Below, piece by piece: positions 1 through 11,870 of a stretch of DNA of 11,870 bases. The position numbers were made by a program, and so were the translations under genes. Location of the stretch: IMG/VR virus record IMGVR_UViG_2636415959_000004; one strand, given 5' to 3'. This stretch comes from a virus. Taxonomy: Duplodnaviria; Heunggongvirae; Uroviricota; Caudoviricetes. The notes under the pieces were generated by a model, which ran no database searches, was not told the origin of the DNA, and saw nothing but the letters and a program-made list of their open reading frames with translations. Each line of letters opens with the position of its first letter. Position 1 is the stretch's first letter.

Positions 1-258
1 ATGCAAACCGTTATTTTTGGTCGTTCGGGTTGCCCTTACTGTGTGCGTGCAAAAGATCTGGCTGAGAAATTGAGCAATGAACGCGATGATTTTCAGTATC
101 AGTATGTAGATATTCGTGCGGAAGGGATCACTAAAGAAGATCTACAACAAAAGGCAGGTAAACCCGTAGAAACCGTGCCGCAGATTTTTGTCGATCAGCA
201 ACATATCGGCGGCTATACCGATTTTGCTGCATGGGTGAAAGAAAATCTGGACGCCTGA
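1..258 (+). CDS. grxA: Glutaredoxin 1
   Basis: 85-aa ORF starting at base 1 with ATG; CPYC active-site motif (GCPYCVRAK) and overall sequence as I remember E. coli GrxA; convergent with the next gene as in the grxA-ybjM neighbourhood. Confidence 0.93.
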   Translation: MQTVIFGRSGCPYCVRAKDLAEKLSNERDDFQYQYVDIRAEGITKEDLQQKAGKPVETVPQIFVDQQHIGGYTDFAAWVKENLDA

Positions 259-267
259 TCGTCTGAC

Positions 268-300
268 AAGCCCTCGCGTTGAGGGCTTTACTGATTTTTT
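268..300. terminator. Hairpin between convergent grxA and ybjM, likely shared transcription terminator
   Basis: Inverted repeat AAGCCCTC (268-275) / GAGGGCTT (281-288) with 5-nt loop, followed on the plus strand by TACTGATTTTTT; overlaps the ybjM stop codon (288-290). Confidence 0.5.
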
Positions 301-665
301 CTGTGCTGTGGTTTAAACAAACTACTGATAAATAAGAAACACAGTGCCCCCAGCGCACACCAGAACACCGCGCTTAGTAACCATGCCAGCTCTTGCCAGA
401 ATGAGCGCGTCGGTGAAAAAAACAGCCGCATAATGAGCATCGAACAGGGTGCCGCCAGCATTGCGCCAAACAGAGGTTTCAGGACTTCTCTACGCTGTGA
501 AAAGAAGCTGGCGACTGCTCCAGGAAGAATGAAAAATAGCAAGCCGATTTCAGGATGCCCGGCAGCCCGAAAAGCGCCTTTCATGTGCGTCGCCAGAAAA
601 AGGCACACCACAATGAAGAGGACAAAACAGCAGATTGCCCCCGCCCAACGTTGTTTATGTTTCAC
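288..665 (-). CDS. ybjM: Small inner-membrane protein YbjM (125 aa)
   Basis: 125-aa hydrophobic ORF with GTG start at 665 preceded by a strong AGGAGGA Shine-Dalgarno about 5 nt upstream; size and position (between grxA and ybjL) match E. coli ybjM from memory. Confidence 0.8.
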   Translation of the reverse strand: MKHKQRWAGAICCFVLFIVVCLFLATHMKGAFRAAGHPEIGLLFFILPGAVASFFSQRREVLKPLFGAMLAAPCSMLIMRLFFSPTRSFWQELAWLLSAVFWCALGALCFLFISSLFKPQHRKNQ

Positions 666-934
666 TCGTTCCTCCTGACACTGCGTCTATCGAACACATT
701 TTTCGCCAGTGTGGCGTTCAGTAAGATAAAGCCGCTTCGCATTCCATGCTAATATAGGCCAACGCAATTCATATAGCCGTTGATACCTAATGTGATTACA
801 CTAGTAAAATATATTGTTACTTTACTATCGTTTAGGTGCGCTGAATGAATCTGCGCCCTGAATTCTGGTAAAAAACATTATCGTAAATTACCATTTCTTT
901 CAACAGCTTACTAGTAAACAAGAAGTTAGCCTCC

Positions 935-2620
935 GTGAATATAAACGTCGCCGAATTGTTAAATGGGAATTACATTCTGTTATTATTTGTGGTCCTCGCG
1001 CTTGGGCTATGTCTCGGAAAGTTACGACTTGGTTCGATCCAACTGGGTAATTCCATTGGCGTTTTAGTCGTATCGCTGTTATTAGGCCAACAACATTTCA
1101 GCATTAACACCGATGCGCTTAATCTTGGCTTTATGCTGTTTATTTTCTGCGTCGGGGTCGAAGCCGGACCGAACTTTTTTTCCATTTTTTTTCGCGATGG
1201 GAAAAATTACCTAATGTTAGCACTGGTGATGGTTGGCAGTGCGCTGGTGATCGCCTTAGGGTTAGGTAAGCTGTTTGGCTGGGATATTGGCCTGACGGCC
1301 GGTATGTTAGCAGGCTCTATGACGTCGACACCGGTTCTGGTCGGTGCTGGCGATACACTGCGTCATTCCGGCATGGAAAGCAGGCAGCTCTCACTGGCAC
1401 TGGATAATCTGAGCCTCGGGTATGCCTTAACCTATTTAATCGGTCTGGTGAGTTTGATTGTTGGTGCGCGTTACTTGCCGAAATTGCAGCATCAGGACTT
1501 ACAGACCAGCGCCCAGCAAATCGCCCGCGAACGTGGCCTGGACACTGATGCCAACCGTAAGGTTTATTTACCGGTGATCCGCGCCTATCGCGTCGGCCCG
1601 GAGCTGGTGGCCTGGACCGACGGCAAAAATCTGCGTGAACTGGGTATTTATCGACAAACCGGCTGCTACATTGAACGTATTCGACGTAACGGGATTCTGG
1701 CAAATCCAGACGGTGATGCCGTGCTACAAATGGGCGATGAAATAGCGTTGGTAGGCTATCCCGACGCCCATGCCCGACTCGATCCCAGCTTCCGTAACGG
1801 TAAAGAAGTTTTCGATCGTGACCTTCTCGACATGCGTATCGTCACTGAAGAAGTGGTCGTTAAAAACCATAACGCTGTAGGTAAACGTCTCGCACAACTG
1901 AAGTTGACCGATCACGGTTGCTTCCTTAACCGCGTCATTCGTAGCCAGATTGAGATGCCGATAGATGACAACGTCGTGCTTAACAAAGGTGACGTTTTAC
2001 AAGTCAGCGGTGATGCCCGTCGCGTAAAAACCATCGCCGATCGCATCGGCTTTATCTCGATTCACAGCCAGGTCACTGACCTGCTGGCATTTTGCGCCTT
2101 CTTTGTTATTGGGCTGATGATCGGGATGATCACCTTCCAGTTCAGCACATTCAGTTTCGGCATGGGGAACGCTGCCGGGTTGTTATTCGCCGGAATTATG
2201 CTGGGCTTTATGCGTGCTAACCACCCGACCTTCGGTTACATTCCGCAAGGTGCATTAAGCATGGTGAAAGAGTTCGGCTTGATGGTGTTTATGGCAGGCG
2301 TTGGTCTGAGCGCCGGTAGCGGTATTAATAACGGCCTGGGCGCGATTGGCGGTCAGATGTTGATTGCCGGATTAATTGTCAGTCTTGTGCCCGTGGTTAT
2401 CTGTTTCTTGTTCGGTGCTTATGTATTGCGAATGAACCGCGCACTGTTGTTCGGCGCAATGATGGGCGCACGCACCTGCGCGCCGGCAATGGAGATCATC
2501 AGTGATACAGCTCGCAGTAACATCCCTGCGCTGGGCTATGCGGGCACCTACGCAATCGCCAACGTCCTGCTGACGCTGGCAGGGACAATCATCGTCATGG
2601 TATGGCCAGGATTAGGATAA
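935..2620 (+). CDS. ybjL: Putative AAE-family transporter YbjL (561 aa) with two central RCK_C/TrkA-C-like domains
   Basis: 561-aa ORF with GTG start at 935; hydrophobic N- and C-terminal membrane domains flank a soluble middle region; length and N-terminus [17 protein letters not shown] match YbjL as I recall it; no obvious SD before the GTG. Confidence 0.9.
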
Positions 2621-2732
2621 AACTGAAGTTGCCCTGAAAATGAAATTTTTTTGCACAACCGCAGAACTTTTCCGCAGGGCATCAGTCTTAATTAGTGCCA
2701 CTGCTTTTCTTTGATGTCCCCATTTTGTGGAG

Positions 2733-2775
2733 CCCATCAACCCCGCCATTTCGGTTCAAGGTTGATGGGTTTTTT
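2733..2775 (+). terminator. Rho-independent terminator downstream of ybjL
   Basis: Stem CCCATCAACC (2733-2742) / GGTTGATGGG (2760-2769) followed by TTTTTT (2770-2775); the T-run is present only on the plus strand, so it terminates ybjL rather than ogr. Confidence 0.55.
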
Positions 2776-2855
2776 GTTGCCTGAAATTTATGCCGTTTAA
2801 AATCATGACGTTAGAAGCACTGTTTTTTAACGATGGCGACAAAATGGCGGCAGCG

Positions 2856-3074
2856 TCAAAGAGAGAGCGCCACCTGTCCTGATTTCATTGGATGCGGCTG
2901 AACCGGATTTGACTCTTTTGGCGTTGCAATCGAACGAACAAAAGTTTCATGGGTTACAAAAGTATGGCTGCAGTTAATATTCTGGCACTGGTTGTAACGC
3001 TCTTTGGTCAATGAAGATACCTGAAAACTGCTGCGAGTATGGGCGGCACTTCCACACAGTGGGCAAATCATCAT
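2856..3074 (-). CDS. ogr: Ogr/Delta-family zinc-finger late-gene transcription activator (72 aa)
   Basis: CPLC...CQNINC four-cysteine zinc-finger pattern and overall resemblance to P2 Ogr / 186 B; ATG at 3074 is preceded by GGGGAGA at the right spacing, and the tracked start at 3107 would place that SD inside the coding sequence. Confidence 0.85.
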   Translation of the reverse strand: MMICPLCGSAAHTRSSFQVSSLTKERYNQCQNINCSHTFVTHETFVRSIATPKESNPVQPHPMKSGQVALSL

Positions 3075-3104
3075 TTTTCGAGTTCTCCCCATTTTTGCTA
3101 AATT

Positions 3105-3140
3105 CACAATAATGATACCGCATTATTCCATTTTGCAAAC
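3105..3140 (-). promoter_or_regulatory. Candidate sigma70 promoter for ogr
   Basis: On the minus strand TTGCAA (3138-3133) and TATCAT (3117-3112) with a 15-nt spacer (alternative -10 TCATTA at 18 nt), upstream of the ogr SD, in the D-ogr intergenic region. Spacing is suboptimal; motif match only. Confidence 0.3.
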
Positions 3141-3164
3141 TTAAAAGTTCTCCATTGCGAAGAA

Positions 3165-4265
3165 TCATTCCATTTCGAAATCATCAATCCTCACTTCAAG
3201 CTCCAGACTGGTCGTAAAACCGTTATCCGAGCTGACGGTATGTGTCAGAGTCGTAATGGTCCATTCCGCATCATCTATCGGCTGTTTAAAACCACTGACC
3301 TTCACAGGCATTTCCGTGTAGAGATCTGCCCGCCCTTCTGCCAGTTGTAGCGAGAATGACGCAACGCCGCGTTGCAGGCGTTCCCACTGCATTTTCGCCG
3401 CTCGTTCGGCGTTGCTCCGGTTGGCATAAGTGCGATTAAGTACCAGCACGTTTTCATCCGTACCCACCAGGTAATCGCCCTGCTTCGCTTCCGGCTCTTT
3501 CTTCTGCTTCTTAGTTCTGCGCTTACGCTTCACCGTGGTGCTTTCTTTCTTCGCAGGTTCGCGGGTATGCAACCAGCTGGCAATTACGCCCGTGTAAGCT
3601 CCGCGATCTGCCAGGGTAAATCGGTGACTGTCGCCGTCCTTGCGTGTGATAGTGATCACTGGCAGTGGTTTACCAGTGGCGCTTTTGCCCTGTCCCTGCC
3701 GAATGAATAACAGATTGCCATTTTTCACCGACGCAATAGCACCGTACTGGCGCGCCAGCCGCATCAGAAAACTGCCGTCACTCTCATTAGTCTGGTCTAT
3801 ATGTTCCACGGGCTTATCCGACAGGTCTTTACCCAGTGCCATCTTCAGCTTGTGACGCGCGGCTATTTCCTTCACCACTTCCCCAACTGTGGTCTTGTGC
3901 CACGATTTTTCACGGCGGGTATTCAGCGTTTCCCGAAAATCAGCACTTCGCGCCCGGATAGTCAGGCGGTCCGGTGCGCCAGTGTGTTCAATCTCGTCCA
4001 CTGTGAATGCCCCTTTCGGGAAAAGCGGCTGCCCCTTCCAGCCTAGCGCCAGCGTAATGACCGCACCACGGCGCGGCAGCGCTATTTTTCCATCGGCGTC
4101 ATCCAGCTCCAGATCAAGCTGGTCCGCTTCAAAGCCCCGGTTATCCGTCAGCGTCAGACTCATCAGGCGGTTATCCAGCACAGTGGTGATATCCCTGCCC
4201 TCAATACTGATACTGAATGCCGGAGTTTTGTTGCCTTTGTTAAGCAGCTCAGAGCTGAAATTCAC
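3165..4265 (-). CDS. D: Phage tail protein D (late control gene D family), 366 aa
   Basis: Resembles P2 gpD as I recall it and sits in the conserved T-U-D-ogr order; GTG start at 4265 overlaps the U stop (GTGA), suggesting translational coupling. Confidence 0.88.
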   Translation of the reverse strand: MNFSSELLNKGNKTPAFSISIEGRDITTVLDNRLMSLTLTDNRGFEADQLDLELDDADGKIALPRRGAVITLALGWKGQPLFPKGAFTVDEIEHTGAPDRLTIRARSADFRETLNTRREKSWHKTTVGEVVKEIAARHKLKMALGKDLSDKPVEHIDQTNESDGSFLMRLARQYGAIASVKNGNLLFIRQGQGKSATGKPLPVITITRKDGDSHRFTLADRGAYTGVIASWLHTREPAKKESTTVKRKRRTKKQKKEPEAKQGDYLVGTDENVLVLNRTYANRSNAERAAKMQWERLQRGVASFSLQLAEGRADLYTEMPVKVSGFKQPIDDAEWTITTLTHTVSSDNGFTTSLELEVRIDDFEME

Positions 4266-4747
4266 GACAGCAGCCCTCCCACCGTTTTACTGATATCGCT
4301 TAAGGCAGATGTTGCCGTTTCCTGCAGATTATTCAGTTGCGCACTGAGATCACCGAACATATCGGACAGGGATTCATCCACCCGTTTGAGCGACAGGGTG
4401 AACTCAATCCGGCGCGGCATACCGTCGCGGAAAAACTCCGTTTTAGTCTGATTCAGTCCCTCAATCACATACATGCCGTAAATCGTGCCGCTACCTTCAA
4501 TCAGGGGCCATGCTTTCCCCTGTTCTGCCATCTGCTCCAGAGCCAGCAACGACAGCCTGCCGCCTGTTATCTCCGGCATAAGAACACCGGAAAGCGTCAG
4601 CATGTCGTTGTCCGGTCCCAGAAACTGCGTGGACGGACGACGGTTTACCCGACTGTTTGCCGCATGTCGCCAGCTACGTTGATACTGCAGTTCCTGATAC
4701 GGCACGGTGCGCAGCATAAACACATACAATCCCAGTACCATCATCAT
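4262..4747 (-). CDS. U: Phage tail protein U (161 aa)
   Basis: N-terminus MMMVLGLYVFMLRTVPYQ and length match P2 gpU from memory; ATG start overlaps the T stop (ATGA). Confidence 0.88.
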   Translation of the reverse strand: MMMVLGLYVFMLRTVPYQELQYQRSWRHAANSRVNRRPSTQFLGPDNDMLTLSGVLMPEITGGRLSLLALEQMAEQGKAWPLIEGSGTIYGMYVIEGLNQTKTEFFRDGMPRRIEFTLSLKRVDESLSDMFGDLSAQLNNLQETATSALSDISKTVGGLLS

Positions 4748-7626
4748 GCGTCGTATCCCCCCTGATCGCTGTAGTTACTCCTGGCCTTTGCCTTCATCCT
4801 GCGTTCACGTTCATCAAGCTGGCGTGCCACCTCCCGCGCAATATCCTGCGCACTTTGTCCTGGCTGCGTCTGAATGATGATCTGCGTCGGTGCCTCAATC
4901 CGGTGAACGGGCGGCACAGTGGCTGCACGACTCATCATCGCTTCGCCGCCTTTCGCGGGAAGTGCCAAAGGATGCAACGGTGGAAGCTCTGCAGGCGCGG
5001 CAGCAACGCCCATCATTCCGGCAACAACGGCAGCCAGTGCAGCTGTATTTCTCCGGCTGGTCACATTTACCGGGCCGTTAACAATTTCCGGCCCGTTTTC
5101 ACCGACGATGCCAAACTGCCCGCGCGGGATATAGCCGCCGCTGTCATACATCCCCGCAAAGCCATATCCCCATGACGGAAAACCACCCGATGGCATCATC
5201 ACTTTACCGTCTGCATTCACCGTCGCAGGTTGCTGACGCGTCACTCTTTCCGGCAGTTTCGCCTTTGCAGCCTCTTTACTGACAATGCCGAGTTTCTCCA
5301 GCAACCAGGAAACGCCGGATTTCAGGGAGTCCAGCGGATGCATGACCATATTCAGCCCTTCCGCCAGTGCCTCCCCGAATCGTCGCCCCATTGCCGCTGC
5401 GCTCTGCAGTTCGGCAGAGGTCGACTTAACGGGCGTCAGCAGATCAGTAAACCAGCCCCACAGCGCCTGTACTTTGTCGCCAATCCACTGGAACACTGGC
5501 TTAAGCGGTTCGAATGCTGCACTGACGGGACCTGCCGCCGCTTTGAATCCTTCCACCACGCCACCAAGAAATGCGGTGATGGGTTGCCAGTATTTCCAGA
5601 CAACCAGCGCCACGCCCGCCAGTGCAGTAACCACAAGACCTATCGGACTGAGCAGAGCACCTAACAGACCAGATACGGCATACAGGGCAACGCGCAGCAT
5701 CGCCAGTGGACCAGATGCCAGTATTCGCAGCACCGTGCCTGCGGAGGCCAGTCCACCGCGCAGTACCGCCAGAGGATTCATAAACATCACAGCAACAGCA
5801 CGTAAACCGGATAATCCAGACCGCAAAAGTGCAACCGGCGCACCTGCTACAGTTTTCAGGACATTTCCCGTCAGTGATGCCGTGCGGCGCAAAGACGACA
5901 ACGGCGCAGTAAGTAAACCTGCGGCGTTGCCCGATGAAGCAAGCCCGCGTCGCAGCAGTGCAAGTGGTGCGCCAGCCAACCAGGACAACGCGCTGCTGGT
6001 TCGCGTTACTGCTGCCGTAACGGAAGGTAACGTTTTGATACCCAGCACAGAGAATCCCAGACGGATGACTGCCAGCGGCCCCAGCACAGCAGCCAACACC
6101 ACAGCCAGGGTGCCGAGGCCCACAGTAACAGCAGCCACAACCGCTGCTACTTTCATCAGTGTGCCCGTCAGTTCAGGGTTAGCTTCCACCCAGCAACGCA
6201 ACGCCCCCGTGATGCTTTTCACCGTGTACAGAATATCCATCAGCGGCTGGCGCAGCGTTTCGCCCAGGCTGCTGAAGGTGTTCTGCGCTCCGGTTTTGAC
6301 CAGCAACCACTGCGCAGAAAGTGAGTCCTTGTTAATGTCGGATTCTTTCTGCATCGAACCGAGCGCATCATTGCCCGCTGTCAGTTTTAGCTGGCGCTGC
6401 AGTTCCGGCAGGTTGTTTGCCAGTTTCGCCGCATCATCGCCAAACTCTTTACCAAACAACATGGTCATGGCAGACAGGCGCTTATCCTGCGGCAGTGCAT
6501 TCACCTTCTCCAGTACGCGCTGGATAGTTCCCATCGCATCCTTCGTCATCTGCTTTTCAATCACTTCAGGATTGAGTTTCAGCAGATTCATTCCTTCAAA
6601 GAAACTCTTGCTTTGCATGGTCGCAATGGACAATTCACGCACCATCGCGTTGGCAGCACTGGCAGCGACCTCCGGCGCAGCACCCAGTGTCAGGAAGGTG
6701 GAACCCAGCGCCGCCGCTTTACGATAATCCAGACGATCAGCCACACCGCCCAGGCGTTGCATGACATCAATGATGTCTGCCCCTTTCGACATAGCGTTAT
6801 CATCCAGATAGTTCAGCGCATCACCGAGCTGTTCAATATTGCGGGTTGGTATTTTGTAGAGCTGGGCGATTTTCCCCAGACTTTCTGACAGTTCATCCGC
6901 TGGCAGCTCAAAGGCTGTTGCCGCCTTTGCTGCCGTACTGGCGAAGGCCAGCAGGTCACGTTTCTGGTCCTCCCAGCTGTCGTCAGGGTTTGCCACATTC
7001 ATGCGCGCACCACCTTCAACCAGTGCGGCGAAGTCCACAGCACCGTTTTCCATTGGCAGCTGTTCACTGGCAGCTTTGATGGCATCCTGCATTTCGTAAA
7101 AACGCGCAGTGCGGTTGCCATTATCGTCACGCAGACCATTGACCTGCTTTGCCACACCTTTCATGGCATCTTCCATGCTGGTATAGCTTTTTACCGCCGC
7201 CATCACTGGCGCGCCCATTGCCAGCCCTGCAGCCGTGGTGGTGGCTCCGGCTCCTGCGATGCGATCGCGCACTTCAAGCCGTCTTGAGTATTGTTCTCTG
7301 GCAGCGTTCATCCGTGCCTGTTGTTCACCCAGACGTTTAAGTGCTTTTTGCTGGCCCTCCAGTGCCTGACGAGTTTCTTCGGCATTTTTCTTAAGTTCTC
7401 GCTGGGCACTACTGAGTTGTCTGGTATCAATCCCTGATTCTTTAAGTGCCTGACGTTGTCTCTGGACCGCCCCCAACAAGCCGTTATAGGTCTGCTGAAG
7501 TTCCTGTACCCGGCTGATGGCCCAGCGGGCGTCACGCCACAAATCACCGCTGGCTTCTGCCAGTTCCTCGCCTCGCTTCACACCGGATGCCGTGGCGTCA
7601 TAGTCCTGGTATCGTTCGTTGAGCAT
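4744..7626 (-). CDS. T: Phage tail tape measure protein (about 960 aa from ATG 7626; the tracked ORF uses TTG at 7671)
   Basis: Very long ORF directly upstream of U with coiled-coil-like N-terminal half, a hydrophobic glycine/alanine-rich central region with degenerate tandem repeats (GAPxALLRxGL-like) and a C-terminal GYIPRGQFGIVGENGPEIV motif typical of tape measure proteins. The 5' end is uncertain because an in-frame stop lies 2 codons upstream of the TTG and the region abuts a rearrangement junction. Confidence 0.85.
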   Translation of the reverse strand: MLNERYQDYDATASGVKRGEELAEASGDLWRDARWAISRVQELQQTYNGLLGAVQRQRQALKESGIDTRQLSSAQRELKKNAEETRQALEGQQKALKRLGEQQARMNAAREQYSRRLEVRDRIAGAGATTTAAGLAMGAPVMAAVKSYTSMEDAMKGVAKQVNGLRDDNGNRTARFYEMQDAIKAASEQLPMENGAVDFAALVEGGARMNVANPDDSWEDQKRDLLAFASTAAKAATAFELPADELSESLGKIAQLYKIPTRNIEQLGDALNYLDDNAMSKGADIIDVMQRLGGVADRLDYRKAAALGSTFLTLGAAPEVAASAANAMVRELSIATMQSKSFFEGMNLLKLNPEVIEKQMTKDAMGTIQRVLEKVNALPQDKRLSAMTMLFGKEFGDDAAKLANNLPELQRQLKLTAGNDALGSMQKESDINKDSLSAQWLLVKTGAQNTFSSLGETLRQPLMDILYTVKSITGALRCWVEANPELTGTLMKVAAVVAAVTVGLGTLAVVLAAVLGPLAVIRLGFSVLGIKTLPSVTAAVTRTSSALSWLAGAPLALLRRGLASSGNAAGLLTAPLSSLRRTASLTGNVLKTVAGAPVALLRSGLSGLRAVAVMFMNPLAVLRGGLASAGTVLRILASGPLAMLRVALYAVSGLLGALLSPIGLVVTALAGVALVVWKYWQPITAFLGGVVEGFKAAAGPVSAAFEPLKPVFQWIGDKVQALWGWFTDLLTPVKSTSAELQSAAAMGRRFGEALAEGLNMVMHPLDSLKSGVSWLLEKLGIVSKEAAKAKLPERVTRQQPATVNADGKVMMPSGGFPSWGYGFAGMYDSGGYIPRGQFGIVGENGPEIVNGPVNVTSRRNTAALAAVVAGMMGVAAAPAELPPLHPLALPAKGGEAMMSRAATVPPVHRIEAPTQIIIQTQPGQSAQDIAREVARQLDERERRMKAKARSNYSDQGGYDA

Positions 7627-7772
7627 GGCGCGTGCCCAGCAGTAAACCGCCTTTAACGAACTGGTGGACAAGCTGAGTCATGAAGACAGCCGCCAGGACT
7701 ACCGCCAGCGTGCAACAGGCGGTAACGCCCCCGCTGACACTCTGACCAATTGCTGATGGAGCACAAAACCCG

Positions 7773-8128
7773 ATGAAGAAGAATACCCGCTTTGCTTTTA
7801 ACGCTTACCTGCAGCAGCTGGCGCGTCTGAACGGTGTGGCAGTTGAAGAACTGTCCAGCAAGTTCACCGTGGAGCCGTCTGTGCAGCAGACGCTGGAAGA
7901 CCAGATCCAGCAATCCGCCGCATTCCTGACGCTGATTAACGTCACGCCAGTGACTGAGCAGTCCGGTCAGTTGCTGGGGCTGGGTGTTGGCAGCACCATT
8001 GCCGGAACCACTGATACCACCGCAAAAGAGCGTGAGCCTGTCGATCCGACGCTGATGGTCGATGTGGAATATAAATGTGAGCAGACCAACTTTGACACGG
8101 TGCTGACCTACGCGAAGCTGGACCTGTG
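7773..8128 (+). pseudogene. Truncated 5' fragment of a P2-type major capsid gene (gpN family), about 118 codons
   Basis: First ~118 residues (MKKNTRFAFNAYL...FTVEPSV...YKCEQTNFD...LDL) align with the P2 gpN N-terminus as I remember it; similarity stops near 8128 and the frame then runs antisense to a minus-strand ORF. Orientation is opposite to the tail genes, so the fragment is inverted. GGAG lies 11 nt upstream of the ATG. Confidence 0.72.
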
Positions 8129-8151
8129 TACGAGATCCATTGCATCAGCCA

Positions 8152-8391
8152 TCAGTGGATCTCCTGCGCTTCGTTCTGGATTGCTTCAGCAGTCACACGC
8201 AGCAGTTCTGCCGCTTCGACGTGGTTTAGCTGGCGGGAGGTGATATGACACGCCAGGCTATCGAGGCGAGCAGCCATTGCTTCAGCCCTTGCCCGGCGTT
8301 CTTCCAGACGAGCCTCTGTCAGTAAAAGATTAAGACCTGCATCATCCGGTCCGGTTTTGGTCGTGAGGGTTTCAATATTACGCATAAGCAA
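8152..8391 (-). CDS. Hypothetical small early-region protein (79 aa)
   Basis: ATG at 8391 preceded by AGGAG about 7 nt upstream; charged, probably helical protein; no family recognised; its stop lies about 25 bp from the capsid-fragment junction. Confidence 0.45.
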   Translation of the reverse strand: MLMRNIETLTTKTGPDDAGLNLLLTEARLEERRARAEAMAARLDSLACHITSRQLNHVEAAELLRVTAEAIQNEAQEIH

Positions 8392-8452
8392 TTCTCCTGA
8401 ATTTAGATAAAGGGATGCCCGGCGGGTTTACGCCATTAATTTCATTAGTTGG

Positions 8453-8794
8453 TTAATTCGGCATGGTTAGCCGTCTGGGAAATAAGCTCACCACTGCACG
8501 AAAATGATTCATTGCTTTAATCAACTCCCGCTTTTCGTCAGTGGTCAGCTCATTAATGCTGATGCTATGACGTTCAGCTGGAATTTTTGCCATAAAGAAT
8601 ATGGCAGCCAGTGCCCGTTTATTTTGTTCATTATTGATATCCCGAGGATCACGCATATCTTTAATAAACCGCTCAAGCTCTGACTCAATATTCAAACCAA
8701 AAACTTTCGCCCTTAACTCCGCAATATGATTAAGTCCATTCAGGCGTTCACCGGGTCTTAATGGAACAGTCGCCGCAGCGCCTTCAATAGCCAT
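8453..8794 (-). CDS. Hypothetical early-region protein (113 aa)
   Basis: ATG at 8794 preceded by GGGGGA; its start overlaps the upstream small ORF by 37 nt, a phage-like arrangement; no family recognised; occupies the post-cII position where 186 carries host-takeover genes such as fil and dhr (positional analogy only). Confidence 0.5.
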   Translation of the reverse strand: MAIEGAAATVPLRPGERLNGLNHIAELRAKVFGLNIESELERFIKDMRDPRDINNEQNKRALAAIFFMAKIPAERHSISINELTTDEKRELIKAMNHFRAVVSLFPRRLTMPN

Positions 8795-8958
8795 TTGTTC
8801 CCCCGTTTTTTCGTAGATAGTTCTGCCAGCAATTCATCTTGTGAACGGCACGGATGCCAGCGTTTACCATCCTCACCCATGATCCAGCCGTGACCGTAGT
8901 GCATTGCCGGACTTTGTTTTACTAGCAGCGATGCAAATGATGGTTCTTTCGTCAGCAT
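8758..8958 (-). CDS. Hypothetical small early-region protein (66 aa from ATG 8958; tracked GTG start at 8988 gives 76 aa)
   Basis: ATG at 8958 lies immediately after the cII stop with GGTG 4 nt upstream; basic C-terminus; no family recognised. The start is uncertain. Confidence 0.4.
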   Translation of the reverse strand: MLTKEPSFASLLVKQSPAMHYGHGWIMGEDGKRWHPCRSQDELLAELSTKKRGNKWLLKALRRLFH

Positions 8959-8965
8959 AAGCACC

Positions 8966-9475
8966 TCACAGCAAACCGAATGAAGCACCGAGGCCAGTCA
9001 CGGTATCAACTGCACTCGCCATCGCAGGATTAGCCTGTAAACGGGCCTGCAATGAAACAGCAGCCAGCGCCATCAGTCGTGTAACAGAGTTAATGCTGCT
9101 GATCGCATCACGACGGCCTGCACTGGTTTTTACATCGCCAGAAACCGCACCTGCCGCGACACGCCCTATCTCTGCAGTTGCACTCATGACGTAATGCGGC
9201 AGTTTCTCTTTTGCCACCTCATTAATCGGTACACATGGCAGGCAGTGAATCTGTGCCAGAAAGCCATCTACCAGCGTTGAATCTTCAGTCAGATCGGTAA
9301 GCAACCAGATTTCTGGTGCGGTTAATAAATGAGGTTGAGCTGGGTTCAGCTTGTTCCGCAGAATCTGCACATTCATGCCTGCACGTTCTGCCAGTTGCAC
9401 TAGGTTGTGGCGCAATGCGAATGCACGACAGGCTTCATCAAAATGTGGATGTTTGGAAACTTGGTAATCAAACAT
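8966..9475 (-). CDS. cII: Phage 186-type CII transcriptional activator (169 aa)
   Basis: From ATG 9475 the product starts [20 protein letters not shown]... and is 169 aa, matching the 186 CII (CP76) family in length and in sequence as I recall it; GAGG lies about 9 nt upstream; position right after the apl-like gene is as in 186. The tracked TTG start at 9481 adds two residues. Confidence 0.82.
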
Positions 9476-9507
9476 GGTCAATGCCTCTGATGTATTTCAG
9501 AATCGAA

Positions 9508-9729
9508 CTAATTAAGGTTTAGATTGCATTCTGAAAGCGCATCAACGGTCATGGCTGCTATGTTGATCATCACTTTTTCACGTTTTTTATCTTTGCGCAG
9601 ACGGTGACGGATAAGGCGTCCGTCAGCCAACATGTCATTGATGGTATCGATGGACAGCCCTGTCAGCTCGCTATAGCGTTCAATAGTCACATGAGGCGTG
9701 GTAAGAGTGATTGAAATGTTAGGTCTCAT
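9508..9729 (-). CDS. Putative Apl/Cox-type excisionase and switch regulator (73 aa, helix-turn-helix)
   Basis: Small ORF that is the first gene of the leftward operon, divergent from cI and upstream of cII (the position of 186 apl / P2 cox); HTH-like segment [25 protein letters not shown]; AGGAA about 9 nt upstream of the ATG. The assignment is mainly positional. Confidence 0.55.
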
Positions 9730-9854
9730 GATGCAACATTCCTCGTTTAATGATGATTAATCAGGACGAATACGGATCGTTTGTATTTTGTGAACACCAT
9801 AAACATACGATCGTACAGTGAAATCGTCAAGATAAAAGTTCACTTGGAGTGACC
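9730..9854. promoter_or_regulatory. Immunity switch region between the divergent apl-like and cI genes (expected lytic/lysogenic promoters and operators)
   Basis: 125-bp AT-rich intergenic region between divergent regulators; contains imperfect dyad symmetry around 9770-9815 (GATCG...GTATTTT...AAACATAC...CGATC) that could be repressor operators. No promoter hexamers assigned with confidence. Confidence 0.4.
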
Positions 9855-10424
9855 ATGAATTTGGAGAAAGGCGGACGAGGCGCTATAGAGCGCATGGTAG
9901 AAGCTTATGGATTCAAAACTCGACAGGCGTTGTGCGATCATTTAGGAATCTCTAAAAGTACACTCGCCACACGCTACATGCGTGACTCATTCCCAGCAGA
10001 ATGGGTAATCCAGTGCGCCCTTGAAACGGGCACCTCGCTTAATTGGCTCACAACCGGACATGGTTCAAAGCAAACTTCAGGTAATACAAATACTATGGAA
10101 GTTGCTAAATATGTATTATCTGATGGTGCCTTGCGTGAAGACGGTTTTTATATTTTTGATAAGGGATTTCTACCCTCTACGTTTAAAAAACCTTTTGTCA
10201 TCACAGATAACAATTCTGAATTTATTTGTGATAAAGAATTTGATGATATACGTGACGGTAAATGGGTAATAAGTATTGATGGCGAAATAACAATCCGCGA
10301 CATTACTCGTTTACCCGGTGGAAGAATCTTCGTTGAAGGTGGAAACAGAGCCTTCGAGTGCAAGATAGAAGATGTTGAAATAATTGGGAAAATTATAAGT
10401 TTAACAATTAAGTACGTTAGGTAA
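9855..10424 (+). CDS. cI: Phage 186-type CI repressor (189 aa from ATG 9855; tracked GTG at 9849)
   Basis: N-terminal domain (EAYGFKTRQALCDHLGISKSTLATRYMRDSFPAEW...CALETGTSLNWLTTG) matches the phage CI-repressor HTH family; length matches 186 CI (about 192 aa); GGAG 5 nt upstream of ATG 9855; divergent from apl/cII and upstream of int on the same strand. Confidence 0.82.
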   Translation: MNLEKGGRGAIERMVEAYGFKTRQALCDHLGISKSTLATRYMRDSFPAEWVIQCALETGTSLNWLTTGHGSKQTSGNTNTMEVAKYVLSDGALREDGFYIFDKGFLPSTFKKPFVITDNNSEFICDKEFDDIRDGKWVISIDGEITIRDITRLPGGRIFVEGGNRAFECKIEDVEIIGKIISLTIKYVR

Positions 10425-10439
10425 TACCGGGAGGAAACT

Positions 10440-10631
10440 ATGCTTGGTAAGGTATTTTTTGTGGTTTTATCATGCTCTTTGTTATTAAACCCACTAACTA
10501 CCTATGCTAAAAATTATCCTTGTTCTGGGAAAAAGGGAGGTGTCTCTCACTGTACCTCCGATGGAAAGTTCGTTTGCAATGATGGAACTATTAGTAAATC
10601 AAAAAAAATCTGTACTAAAAACTCGCGATAA
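10440..10631 (+). CDS. Small secreted cysteine-rich protein (63 aa; predicted signal peptide plus ~40-aa mature domain with 4 Cys), possible lysogenic-conversion cargo
   Basis: Strong SD GGGAGG (10429-10434) 5 nt before the ATG; hydrophobic N-terminus with a likely signal-peptidase site after TTYA; mature part is Lys/Gly/Ser-rich with 4 Cys; AT-rich; inserted between cI and int on the same strand. Confidence 0.5.
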
Positions 10632-10764
10632 ATTTTGCTTTTATATCTGCGCCTAATATAACAATGAGCCGCAGGCTAACCGCAAAAGTCACATACTCAC
10701 ATAGCAAAAAATAGCCAACTTCATTATGGCTTCAGTGAGATGTATGGTCGCAGGATTTCATACA

Positions 10765-10793
10765 TTGACACTGGTTATATATACAGTAAAAAT
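10765..10793 (+). promoter_or_regulatory. Candidate promoter upstream of int
   Basis: Perfect -35 TTGACA (10765-10770) followed at 16-17 nt by a weak A/T-rich -10 (TAAAAA / AAAAAT). Motif match only. Confidence 0.25.
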
Positions 10794-10817
10794 GCTCTCT
10801 ATTGGAGGGCATTTTTT

Positions 10818-11870
10818 ATGGCAGTACGAAAACTCACCACAGGAAAATGGCTTTGCGAATGTTACCCCGCCGGACGTAGTGGGCGTCGTGTGCGTAAACA
10901 ATTCGCCACCAAAGGCGAAGCTCTGGCTTTTGAGCGCCATACGATGGAAGAAACCGAAGCAAAGCCCTGGCTGGGAGAATCAGTGGATCGTCGAACACTG
11001 AAAGACGTGGTTGAGCTATGGTTCAAACTACATGGTAAATCTCTAACCGCTGGGCAGCATGTCTATGATAAATTGCTGTTGATGGTTGACGCTCTGGGCA
11101 ATCCCCTTGCAACCGATCTCACCTCTAAAATGTTTGCCCACTATCGAGATAAACGCCTGACAGGTGAGATCTACTTCAGCGAGAAATGGAAGAAAGGAGC
11201 AAGCCCGGTCACCATTAACCTGGAGCAAAGCTATCTAAGTAGTGTTTTTAGCGAACTATCCCGCCTGGGCGAATGGTCGTATCCAAACCCACTGGAGAAC
11301 ATGCGAAAATTCACCATCGCAGAAAAAGAGATGGCATGGCTTACCCATGAGCAGATTGTTGAACTGCTGGCTGATTGCAAACGTCAGGACCCAATTCTGG
11401 CACTGGTAGTCAAGATATGCTTAAGCACAGGCGCACGCTGGCGAGAAGCAATAAACCTTACCCGATCACAGGTGACTAAATACCGAATTACCTTTGTAAG
11501 AACGAAGGGGAAGAAAAACAGAAGCATCCCTATCAGTAAAGAGCTTTATGAAGAGATCATGGCGCTTGATGGGTTCAATTTCTTCACAGACTGCTATTTT
11601 CAATTTTTATCCGTGATGGAAAAAACGTCAATCGTGCTCCCTCGCGGTCAACTGACACACGTTCTGCGCCATACGTTTGCGGCGCATTTCATGATGTCGG
11701 GTGGAAATATCCTTGCTTTGCAAAAAATCCTCGGACATCACGATATAAAAATGACTATGCGTTACGCTCATCTGGCACCGGATCATCTGGAAACGGCGCT
11801 CCGTTTCAATCCTCTGGCAACGCTGCCAAGTGGCGACAAAGTGGCGGCAGCGGTTGGCATTACCCCGTAA
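10818..11870 (+). CDS. int: Tyrosine recombinase, P2/186-type phage integrase (350 aa from ATG 10818)
   Basis: Resembles P2 Int as I recall it; catalytic signatures HxxR (LRHTFAAHF) and C-terminal tyrosine (MTMRYAHLAP); GGAGGG about 8 nt upstream of ATG 10818, so the tracked start at 10740 is a spurious 5' extension; the stop codon is the last 3 bases of the window. Confidence 0.9.
   Translation: MAVRKLTTGKWLCECYPAGRSGRRVRKQFATKGEALAFERHTMEETEAKPWLGESVDRRTLKDVVELWFKLHGKSLTAGQHVYDKLLLMVDALGNPLATDLTSKMFAHYRDKRLTGEIYFSEKWKKGASPVTINLEQSYLSSVFSELSRLGEWSYPNPLENMRKFTIAEKEMAWLTHEQIVELLADCKRQDPILALVVKICLSTGARWREAINLTRSQVTKYRITFVRTKGKKNRSIPISKELYEEIMALDGFNFFTDCYFQFLSVMEKTSIVLPRGQLTHVLRHTFAAHFMMSGGNILALQKILGHHDIKMTMRYAHLAPDHLETALRFNPLATLPSGDKVAAAVGITP

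Follow-up and report, generated by a model that had tools for sequence, protein, structure and literature searches.

How did the beginning of a capsid gene come to stand head-to-head with a tail gene? This question is raised by an 11,870-nt stretch of DNA (hereafter the window; IMG/VR record IMGVR_UViG_2636415959_000004), in which the original prediction, made from the sequence alone, recognised a scrambled junction at positions 7626-8152. We conclude that the scrambled stretch is an inert scar, left by rearrangement in a defective P2/186-like (Peduoviridae) prophage at the ybjL-rcdA site in a lineage of Escherichia coli; the scar was produced by stepwise decay and then passed on by vertical inheritance, and we assign to this reading a probability of roughly 0.8. 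Within it, the order and number of the events, their independence of RecA and the lack of expression are the parts that we infer. The original prediction is supported in all its specific inferences but is incomplete, since the scar has three junctions rather than two and includes a 155-bp fragment of the head-completion gene L that had been overlooked.

As the main reference we used the intact ~33-kb prophage of E. coli NCTC9008 (L003/L004), which occupies the same ybjL-rcdA site in the same orientation, and as a second intact reference Escherichia phage 500465-1 (L001; Wadgaonvirus). Both relatives show the canonical collinear gene order; the arrangement in the window is therefore truly rearranged, and a natural gene order is ruled out. 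The alignment, which had been proposed together with the original prediction, placed the breakpoints at base level and divided the window into four blocks: 1-7512 (host DNA and ogr-D-U-T', 98.5% identity to NCTC9008), 7502-7656 (L', 94.8%), 7638-8128 (O'N' in reverse orientation, 96.1%) and 8127-11821 (traR' through int, 97.2%). Relative to NCTC9008 the window lacks ~11.7 kb from the 5' end of T through the 3' tip of L, 1.7 kb comprising the 5' part of L, M and the 3' part of N, and 10.2 kb comprising the 5' part of O, P, Q, cos, the cargo genes, A, dam and the 3' part of traR. Among the losses are the lysis, baseplate, fibre, sheath and tube genes in the first stretch and the replication, portal and terminase genes in the last. 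The scar is composed of the following features (primes denote gene fragments):

4744-7509, minus strand: T', 5'-truncated tape-measure gene (PF10145), T nt ~313 to the end
7502-7509: junction J3, T nt ~313 to L nt ~434, in frame, at TCCTG[T/C]AC (2 bp perfect, 7/8 overall)
7502-7656, minus strand: L', fragment of the head-completion gene L (nt 280-434, codons ~94-144), same orientation as T
7640-7656: junction J2 (inversion), L nt ~280 to reverse-complemented O nt ~718, at AGCAG[T/C]AAACCGC (12/13)
7640-7756, plus strand: O', last 117 nt of the scaffold gene O with its stop, inverted relative to the tail genes
7773-8128, plus strand: N', first 356 nt (118 codons) of the P2-type capsid gene N (PF05125, E=7.5e-39)
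8127-8128: junction J1, N nt 356 to inverted traR nt 24, with a 2-bp TG microhomology
8129-8152, minus strand: traR', first 24 nt of a TraR/DksA-like early gene, from alignment with intact early regions

The identity of the inverted piece is clear. Megablast against phage genomes returned a single 489-bp block (window 7640-8128) with 95-98% identity in ~58 P2-like phages, where it runs from the last part of the scaffold gene into the first part of the capsid gene; in BLAST against phage 500465-1 the block resolves into O nt 718-834, a 16-bp spacer and N nt 1-356. The product of the open reading frame (ORF) at 7773-8243 (plus strand) aligns through residues 8-118 with positions 1-111 of the 327 in PF05125, the P2-family major capsid profile, scoring 134 bits against a cut-off of 27 (E=7.5e-39), and thus belongs to the family. 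Together with 98% nucleotide identity to annotated N genes, this bears out the claim that 7773-8128 is the 5' fragment of an N-like gene inverted relative to the tail genes, and disposes of the possibility, foreseen with that claim, that its product has no similarity to P2-type capsids. A full-length capsid domain (~327 profile positions, ~352 aa) is absent: N homology stops at nt 356 of 1059, so that we are dealing with a gene fragment and not with a capsid gene. The short frame ending at 7756, which had been suspected to be the 3' end of O, is just that, as the translation of 7640-7756 (TAFNELVDKLSHEDSRQDYRQRATGGNAPADTLTNC, followed by the stop) is the native C-terminus of gpO. On the other side N homology ends at 8128 and is followed by traR' nt 1-24 (8152-8129, minus strand), whose ATG overlaps the stop codon of the DUF2732 gene at 8152; the contact with the early region, predicted near 8152, is therefore mapped to 8128/8129. 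Called mechanically, the N' frame runs on to 8243 through antisense traR' and DUF2732 sequence, and its chimeric 156-aa product is found in GenBank as EOW22405.1 from E. coli KTE108.

The neighbour on the minus strand is a chimera too. The 975-aa ORF at 4744-7671 (minus strand) carries the tape-measure domain PF10145, while its residues 6-61 match positions 79-134 of the 139 in PF05926 (head completion protein gpL, E=3.7e-14) and its residues 8-57 correspond in BLASTP to gpL residues 96-145. At the DNA level, the 155 bp at 7502-7656 (minus strand) are L nt 280-434, with BLASTN identities of 95.5% to L of phage 500465-1 and 94.8% to L of NCTC9008; only this part of the 465 nt of L is present, and hence no full-length gpL. 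Homology to intact T ends at window 7509-7512 (T nt 313), residues 51-975 of the ORF align with T residues 101-1025, and L' sequence stands in place of T residues 1 to ~104, so that the native N-terminus of T is missing and T' continues in frame from 51 codons of L. The mechanical start at 7671 sits in antisense O' sequence. N' had been described as lying about 100 bp from the tape measure start on the opposite strand: the head-to-head placement stands, but 7671 is the start of the chimeric ORF and not of T, and the real neighbour facing N' is the L' fragment fused to the 5'-truncated T, with true T sequence from ~7509. The suspicion that the native 5' end of T may be lost proved right, ~104 codons being gone.

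Three-way alignments show how the pieces were joined (a slash stands at the junction). At J3, T reads ...TTCCTGTAC/TCG, L reads ...TCCTGCAC/CCGG and the window reads TTCCTGTAC/CCGG. At J2, L reads ...GTGCCCAGCAGTAAACCGC/GTTG and O, when reverse-complemented, ...GGAGCAGCAAACCGC/CTTTAACG; at the variable position the window has the T of L, after which it continues as O, from which it follows that the exchange took place inside the perfect AAACCGC of a 12/13-nt inverted repeat. The two homology blocks overlap by 17 nt. The J2 interval lies within 7626-7680, where the left junction had been expected. The repeat itself, AGCAGYAAACCGC, is present in O and L of the intact NCTC9008 prophage (L003 36811-36823 and 39016-39028), 2.2 kb apart; this O/L inverted repeat of intact phages is the substrate of the J2 inversion. 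At J1, N reads ...GGACCTGTG/GGCG, the early strand reads ...GCTGCTG/TACAAGATCC and the window reads GGACCTGTG/TACGAGATCC. Inspection of the breakpoints, also proposed with the original prediction, thus revealed microhomology at J1, J2 and J3, and no insertion sequence (IS) element, filler or recombinase site across them, every base there being phage sequence. A rearrangement mediated by an IS or transposon was rejected on these grounds and on the lack of a transposase ORF in the window.

In the scheme that we propose, an ancestral ~33-kb prophage would have lost ~23.7 kb in three stretches, leaving four blocks which, in phage sense (the minus strand of the window), read int through traR' nt 24, reverse-complemented (rc) O718 through N356, L280-434, and T313 through ogr. 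If the breakpoints are lettered in phage order as a (traR 24), b (O 718), c (N 356), d (L 280), e (L 434) and f (T 313), the remnant can be written as [..a] rc[b..c] [d..e] [f..]. The shortest path to it would take three steps, all by short-homology joins of the RecA-independent type. A 2.2-kb inversion between b and d, via the 12/13-nt O/L inverted repeat, would have created J2; illegitimate recombination would have deleted the DNA between traR nt 24 and N nt 356, the latter lying in the inverted segment, creating J1 at the 2-bp TG and removing the reciprocal inversion junction; and a further illegitimate deletion, this time joining L nt 434 to T nt 313, would have created J3 (2 bp perfect, 7/8 imperfect). 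Thereafter the remnant would have been inherited vertically, with decay continuing. The estimate of at least one inversion plus two deletions in the original prediction is thus sufficient, though the actual events differ from those that it pictured.

Three observations weigh against this scheme. No intermediate with J2 alone, or with any other subset of the junctions, was found in 5,426 complete RefSeq E. coli genomes, GTDB species representatives, IMG/VR or JGI metagenomes, which leaves the stepwise order a proposal. Retained islands of 155 bp and 489 bp (and of another 79 bp in a derivative described below) are somewhat unexpected under independent random deletions and suit a single replicative template switching at least as well. 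Finally, J1 lies on a recurrent breakpoint, which hints at a non-random initiating lesion that random illegitimate deletion does not explain.

The first two points lead to the alternative that J1, J2 and J3 were all made by one serial template-switching event, of the kind known as fork stalling and template switching or microhomology-mediated break-induced replication (FoSTeS/MMBIR), in which replication copied T, jumped to L nt 434-280, switched strand to O718-N356 and then moved to traR. We regard this as unlikely, but by no means far-fetched. Microhomology at each junction (2-13 nt, without filler) and short templated segments (155 and 489 bp, the latter inverted) are what FoSTeS/MMBIR is recognised by; partial intermediates are absent from all collections searched; and the derivative again has two deletions around a 79-bp island, with microhomologies of 4 and 2 nt. 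On the other hand, missing intermediates are weak evidence in a lineage that is sparsely sampled among complete genomes, stepwise events yield the same junctions, and the sequence does not separate one event from three.

The third point concerns capsid gene N, which is broken at the same place in other elements. In FDAARGOS_433 an N'-L deletion is present in another prophage, in enterotoxigenic E. coli (ETEC) 504239 N' is joined to D', and both break N at nt 356/357, i.e. at the place of J1, with different partners. To survey such cases, a collection of 5.8 billion proteins was searched with the chimeric ORF and the end of N homology was mapped in each match, excluding frameshifts (24 proteins), proteins without the N-terminus (14), partials or those with short tails (9) and internal N deletions (4). 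Of the rearrangement-type proteins that remained, 43 have at least 85% identity to N, and 30 of those 43 end at or before residue 125. Among these 30, eight end at residues 65-66, each with a different tail (S, H, sheath, T at three places, D or M), and three to five end at residues 118-119. At the DNA level the first cluster falls on nt 197 exactly in 3 of 3 junctions (...AGTCCGGTCA/), with CA or TCA microhomology, while the second (...GGACCTGTGG/) comprises nt 354 (L015), nt 356 (the window and L013) and nt 357 (L014, L016 and L017). In total, at least seven independent rearrangements, J1 included, end within the 4-nt cluster N nt 354-357 with different partners, and at least eight distinct partners are joined at N nt 197, with 1-3 nt of microhomology at both clusters. 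These counts are subject to the way in which the sample was drawn, as the two complete-genome cases surfaced through sharing their breakpoint with the query, and the survey sees only chimeras that keep the 5' end of N. In the sample examined the recurrence is statistically real, and it is the only unusual element of the scar.

We tentatively suggest, while considering it rather doubtful, that J1 is an instance of a previously unrecognised phenomenon, namely nucleotide-precise recurrent endpoints in N (nt 197 and nt 354-357) that keep the 5' side of the gene and are joined to many partners. If so, a site-specific strand break or replication stall on the sense strand of N would channel prophage decay; and if the endpoints recur through a specific lesion or enzyme, the inactivation of E. 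coli prophages would be partly directed and not random, and the sites in N would offer a handle on the activity responsible.

What could produce such a break is a narrower issue. One may imagine that J1 was initiated by a site-specific break or stall in the sense strand of N, due either to gpA acting at an origin-like sequence or to Cascade-Cas3, and that the 3' end at N nt ~356 then primed elsewhere at a microhomology; this we hold to be improbable. Apart from the two clusters of endpoints themselves, with at least seven and at least eight rearrangements, what points to it is the surrounding sequence. The P2 ori core, taken from NC_001895 as GCGCCTCG^GAGTCCTGTCAA (origin GCGCCTCG^GAGTCCTGTCAATAAC; the nick, shown by the caret, is annotated at P2 nt 29892), has its best match within N nt 1-420 at the nt-197 site (10/13), the 186-type core, derived from A of relatives as CCCTTG^GACTCGTGGCAATAAC, has its best match within the same interval at nt 347-359 (9/13), and both sites in N lie 9-12 nt downstream of a type I-E protospacer-adjacent motif (GAG, AAG). 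Against gpA, however, the breakpoints are 6-11 nt 3' of the nick-equivalent position, the prophages deleted at nt 197 carry A and ori of the 186 type and not of the P2 type, and 17-27 sites in the late region match either core at 9/13 or better; moreover, an out-of-sample prediction failed, as truncated gpO proteins have no endpoints at residues 149-164, where the strongest ori-like site is located (~153-157). Against a type I-E system of clustered regularly interspaced short palindromic repeats (CRISPR), no repeat-spacer-repeat match for either site was found in the 5,426 complete E. coli genomes, and the polarity of Cas3 would remove the very side that is kept at the N hotspots.

Ideas of a cos-like sequence and of a hairpin failed as well: the real cos of a relative, GGCGTGGCGGGGATACGA, shares only GGCG with the hotspot, and the fold at N nt ~356 has a z-score of -0.8. 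GWCCKGTSRGC, a motif built from both hotspots, shows a 2.4-fold enrichment in the prophage; as the count takes in the two seed sites themselves, this does not settle the matter. We also noticed that L nt 74-86 contains TGGACCTGTCGGA, nearly identical to the hotspot sequence at N nt 347-359. With the invertase discussed below, five explanations were tried (cos-like sequence, hairpin, gpA pseudo-origin, CRISPR and, for J2, invertase quasi-sites), and none is supported.

It is very improbable that the J2 inversion was made by the phage's own tail-fibre DNA invertase, a serine recombinase of the Hin/Gin/Cin type, acting at quasi-sites in O and L. Such an enzyme is encoded by intact relatives, and both J2 sites have AAACC followed by an identical GC dinucleotide, the crossover in AAACCGC being compatible with a 2-bp staggered exchange. 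However, when compared by hand with genuine inversion sites, taken from a relative (TTCTCACATACC-TT-GGTTTGGGAGAA and TTCTCCCAAACC-AA-CGTTTAAGAAAA), the O and L sites match at only ~10/24 and 9/24 half-site positions, where chance would give ~6/24; two quasi-sites would recombine only very rarely, and the 12/13 inverted repeat alone accounts for the join.

It is scarcely credible that the locus was created by misassembly, or that it serves as a natural functional unit, for instance as a domesticated tail-like particle or as a decoy made of a capsid fragment: U, D, ogr, cI and int are intact and the N' ORF is unchanged in many assemblies, but the same junctions occur in independent isolates and metagenomes processed by different assemblers, a tail cannot be built without sheath, tube, baseplate and fibre genes, T has no N-terminus, D and U are deleted in a derivative, and N' covers 111 of 327 profile positions.

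Returning to the scar as a product of stepwise decay and vertical inheritance, its occurrence elsewhere can be followed in detail. All 11,870 nt are present with 100% identity in GCA_000768425.1 (L008) and with one single-nucleotide difference in GCA_005384525.1 (L006). The 156-aa N' chimera is indexed in 446 blocks of a public assembly collection, in a constant gene context, from NCBI isolates (including E. coli KTE108), Logan assemblies and ENA metagenomes; these identical junctions in independent isolates and metagenomes exclude a misassembly, a point on which the original prediction had asked for support. The arrangement of the window was not found in complete RefSeq E. coli genomes, GTDB representative genomes or IMG/VR, and the sole match among JGI metagenomes (L025) is a further-deleted derivative with all three junctions present. 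This derivative, also represented by L005 and L009, has additional deletions of window 3280-4567 and 4647-5229, separated by a 79-bp island (4568-4646), which take away the greater part of both D and U, together with the 3' end of T, at microhomologies TATC and TT; two further microhomology deletions of this kind show that decay is continuing. In the ENA metagenome LEEK22-1 (L007) the same three junctions are accompanied by 113 substitutions, all in the prophage part (window 3501-9500), none in the flanks and only one in 7501-8500, a pattern suggestive of patchy exchange with related phages, by homologous recombination, once the scar was in place.

The remainder of the window consists of chromosomal genes and of the two ends of the prophage:

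1-258: grxA, chromosomal, at the left edge of the window
288-665: ybjM, chromosomal
935-2620: ybjL, chromosomal, adjoining the prophage
2856-3107, minus strand: ogr/delta-like late activator gene (PF04606, E=6.7e-22), the attR-proximal end of the remnant, beside ybjL
3165-4265, minus strand: tail gene D, intact (PF05954/PF06995 for the D and U pair)
4262-4747, minus strand: tail gene U, intact (PF05954/PF06995 for the D and U pair)
8152-8391, minus strand: DUF2732 gene
8453-8794, minus strand: DUF5347 gene
8758-8988, minus strand: fil-like gene
8966-9481, minus strand: cII
9508-9729, minus strand: apl-like gene
9849-10424, plus strand: cI (CI repressor)
10440-10631, plus strand: YdcA-like gene
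to 11870, plus strand: int (integrase), at the right edge of the window

From the DUF2732 gene onwards, assignments rest on Pfam and on gene calls in identical loci (for the YdcA-like gene, on the gene calls). The position of ogr is the same as in the intact NCTC9008 prophage, and 8152-11870 is a retained early, immunity and integration module of the 186 type, collinear with the intact prophage at 97.2% identity. In both GCA_000768425.1 and GCA_005384525.1 the integrase is followed by rcdA, which places the element between ybjL and rcdA; at this end (window 11821-11870 against L004 11462-12217) NCTC9008 has an extra ~720 bp with a gene for a hypothetical protein between int and rcdA, absent in the lineage of the window. 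The order ogr-D-U-T and DUF2732-DUF5347-fil-cII-apl-cI-int, collinear with the intact ybjL-rcdA prophage, is the hallmark of a P2/186-like (Peduoviridae) element. The gene set of a viable phage is not there: A, cos, Q, P, M and the lysis, baseplate, fibre, sheath and tube genes are absent, and O, N, L and T are truncated. The frame at 10440-10631 (plus strand), between cI and int, encodes 63 aa with a signal peptide-like N-terminus; in L008, where the locus is 100% identical, the corresponding product is entered as a YdcA family protein (PF27300). The gene is kept in intact relatives and is probably a cargo gene expressed in lysogeny.

As to function, a consensus scan of 7300-8500 yielded no promoter-like or terminator-like signals above chance. 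Because the native late promoters of the O-N-M-L and tail operons are deleted, the 156-aa N'-antisense and 960-975-aa L'::T' ORFs, which are by-products, are probably not expressed on their own, and the loss of the sheath, tube, baseplate and fibre genes rules out the making of a particle. Immunity may still be conferred by the cI/apl/cII/int module that is retained. A scar in a dead prophage is of little functional importance, but it provides a base-resolution record of how a P2/186-type prophage is whittled down with its cI immunity and integration genes retained, and it shows that annotation pipelines give the names "phage major capsid protein" and "tape measure protein" to what are chimeric pseudogenes.

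Members of one prophage family have decayed independently many times at the ybjL-rcdA site, in ways simpler than the scar in the window. In HL15 (L011) there is a single cII'-sheath' deletion at this site, in LR-27 (L012) cII and T are fused in frame and the fusion is annotated as a "CII family protein" of 420 aa, L022 and L024 have N'-T deletions, and in ETEC 504239 (L014) P-O-N' is joined to D'-ogr, with an IS66 element nearby (for L012, L014, L022 and L024 the only source was the annotation or gene-call table). Both prophage ends are kept in HL15, LR-27, L022 and L024, ETEC 504239 being the exception. Two further candidates, H26 and H30, had at first the look of similar remnants but proved to be prophages lying in tandem or side by side. 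An inverted N' piece is seen for a second time in L020 (Logan SRR18923731, 894-4297), where ogr-D' stands head-to-head with a fusion of N' (1-197) to H', the O gene being located further on, on the opposite strand. Intact or less decayed relatives carry defence-type cargo beside the portal gene (TIR-domain, retron St85, AAA/SMC-like, reverse transcriptase and GmrSD genes; L003 42726-44074, L013 227-2332, L015 1-1610 and 4421-5644, L022 4404-6161, L024 4585-6168), and L015 has a SIR2 gene inside the late region as well. This variable cargo region is wholly deleted in the window.

Comparison with known systems places the scar among familiar cases. Every retained block has 95-98.5% nucleotide identity to the NCTC9008 prophage and phage 500465-1, and the former shares its integration site and orientation, but these relatives have the full collinear ~33-kb gene set, whereas the window lacks 23.7 kb and has O'N' inverted. 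The recurrent endpoints in N resemble the deletions anchored at the nick site of a rolling-circle origin, reportedly described by Michel and Ehrlich in 1986 for M13 and pC194, in that one fixed endpoint is combined with many variable partners; they differ in lying in the capsid gene and not at the real origin in gene A, and their likeness to an origin is unsupported. With FoSTeS/MMBIR and short-homology illegitimate recombination the scar shares microhomologies of 2-13 nt and short templated segments between deletions, one of them inverted. Those processes, including the E. coli form of illegitimate recombination, owe their definition mostly to work on eukaryotic copy-number variants and on plasmid or lambda-bio systems, and for the scar in the window a single event is only one of the possible origins. 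Decay of prophages by internal deletion is an established pattern, said to be documented in the work of Bobay, Touchon and Rocha in 2014 and of Nilsson and co-workers in 2004. The closest parallel is with the cryptic P2-like remnants of E. coli, e.g. ogrK-yegZ of K-12, which belong to the same phage family and represent the same kind of decay, with lytic, replication and morphogenesis genes lost, att-proximal ends kept and pseudogene fragments left behind. The window differs from them in that its scar is complex (three junctions, an inverted 489-bp piece and a 155-bp island) and not a single deletion, and in that its immunity and integration module is fully kept. It thus adds one more case to the familiar class of cryptic P2-like prophages, one whose complex microhomology scar was produced by ordinary decay.

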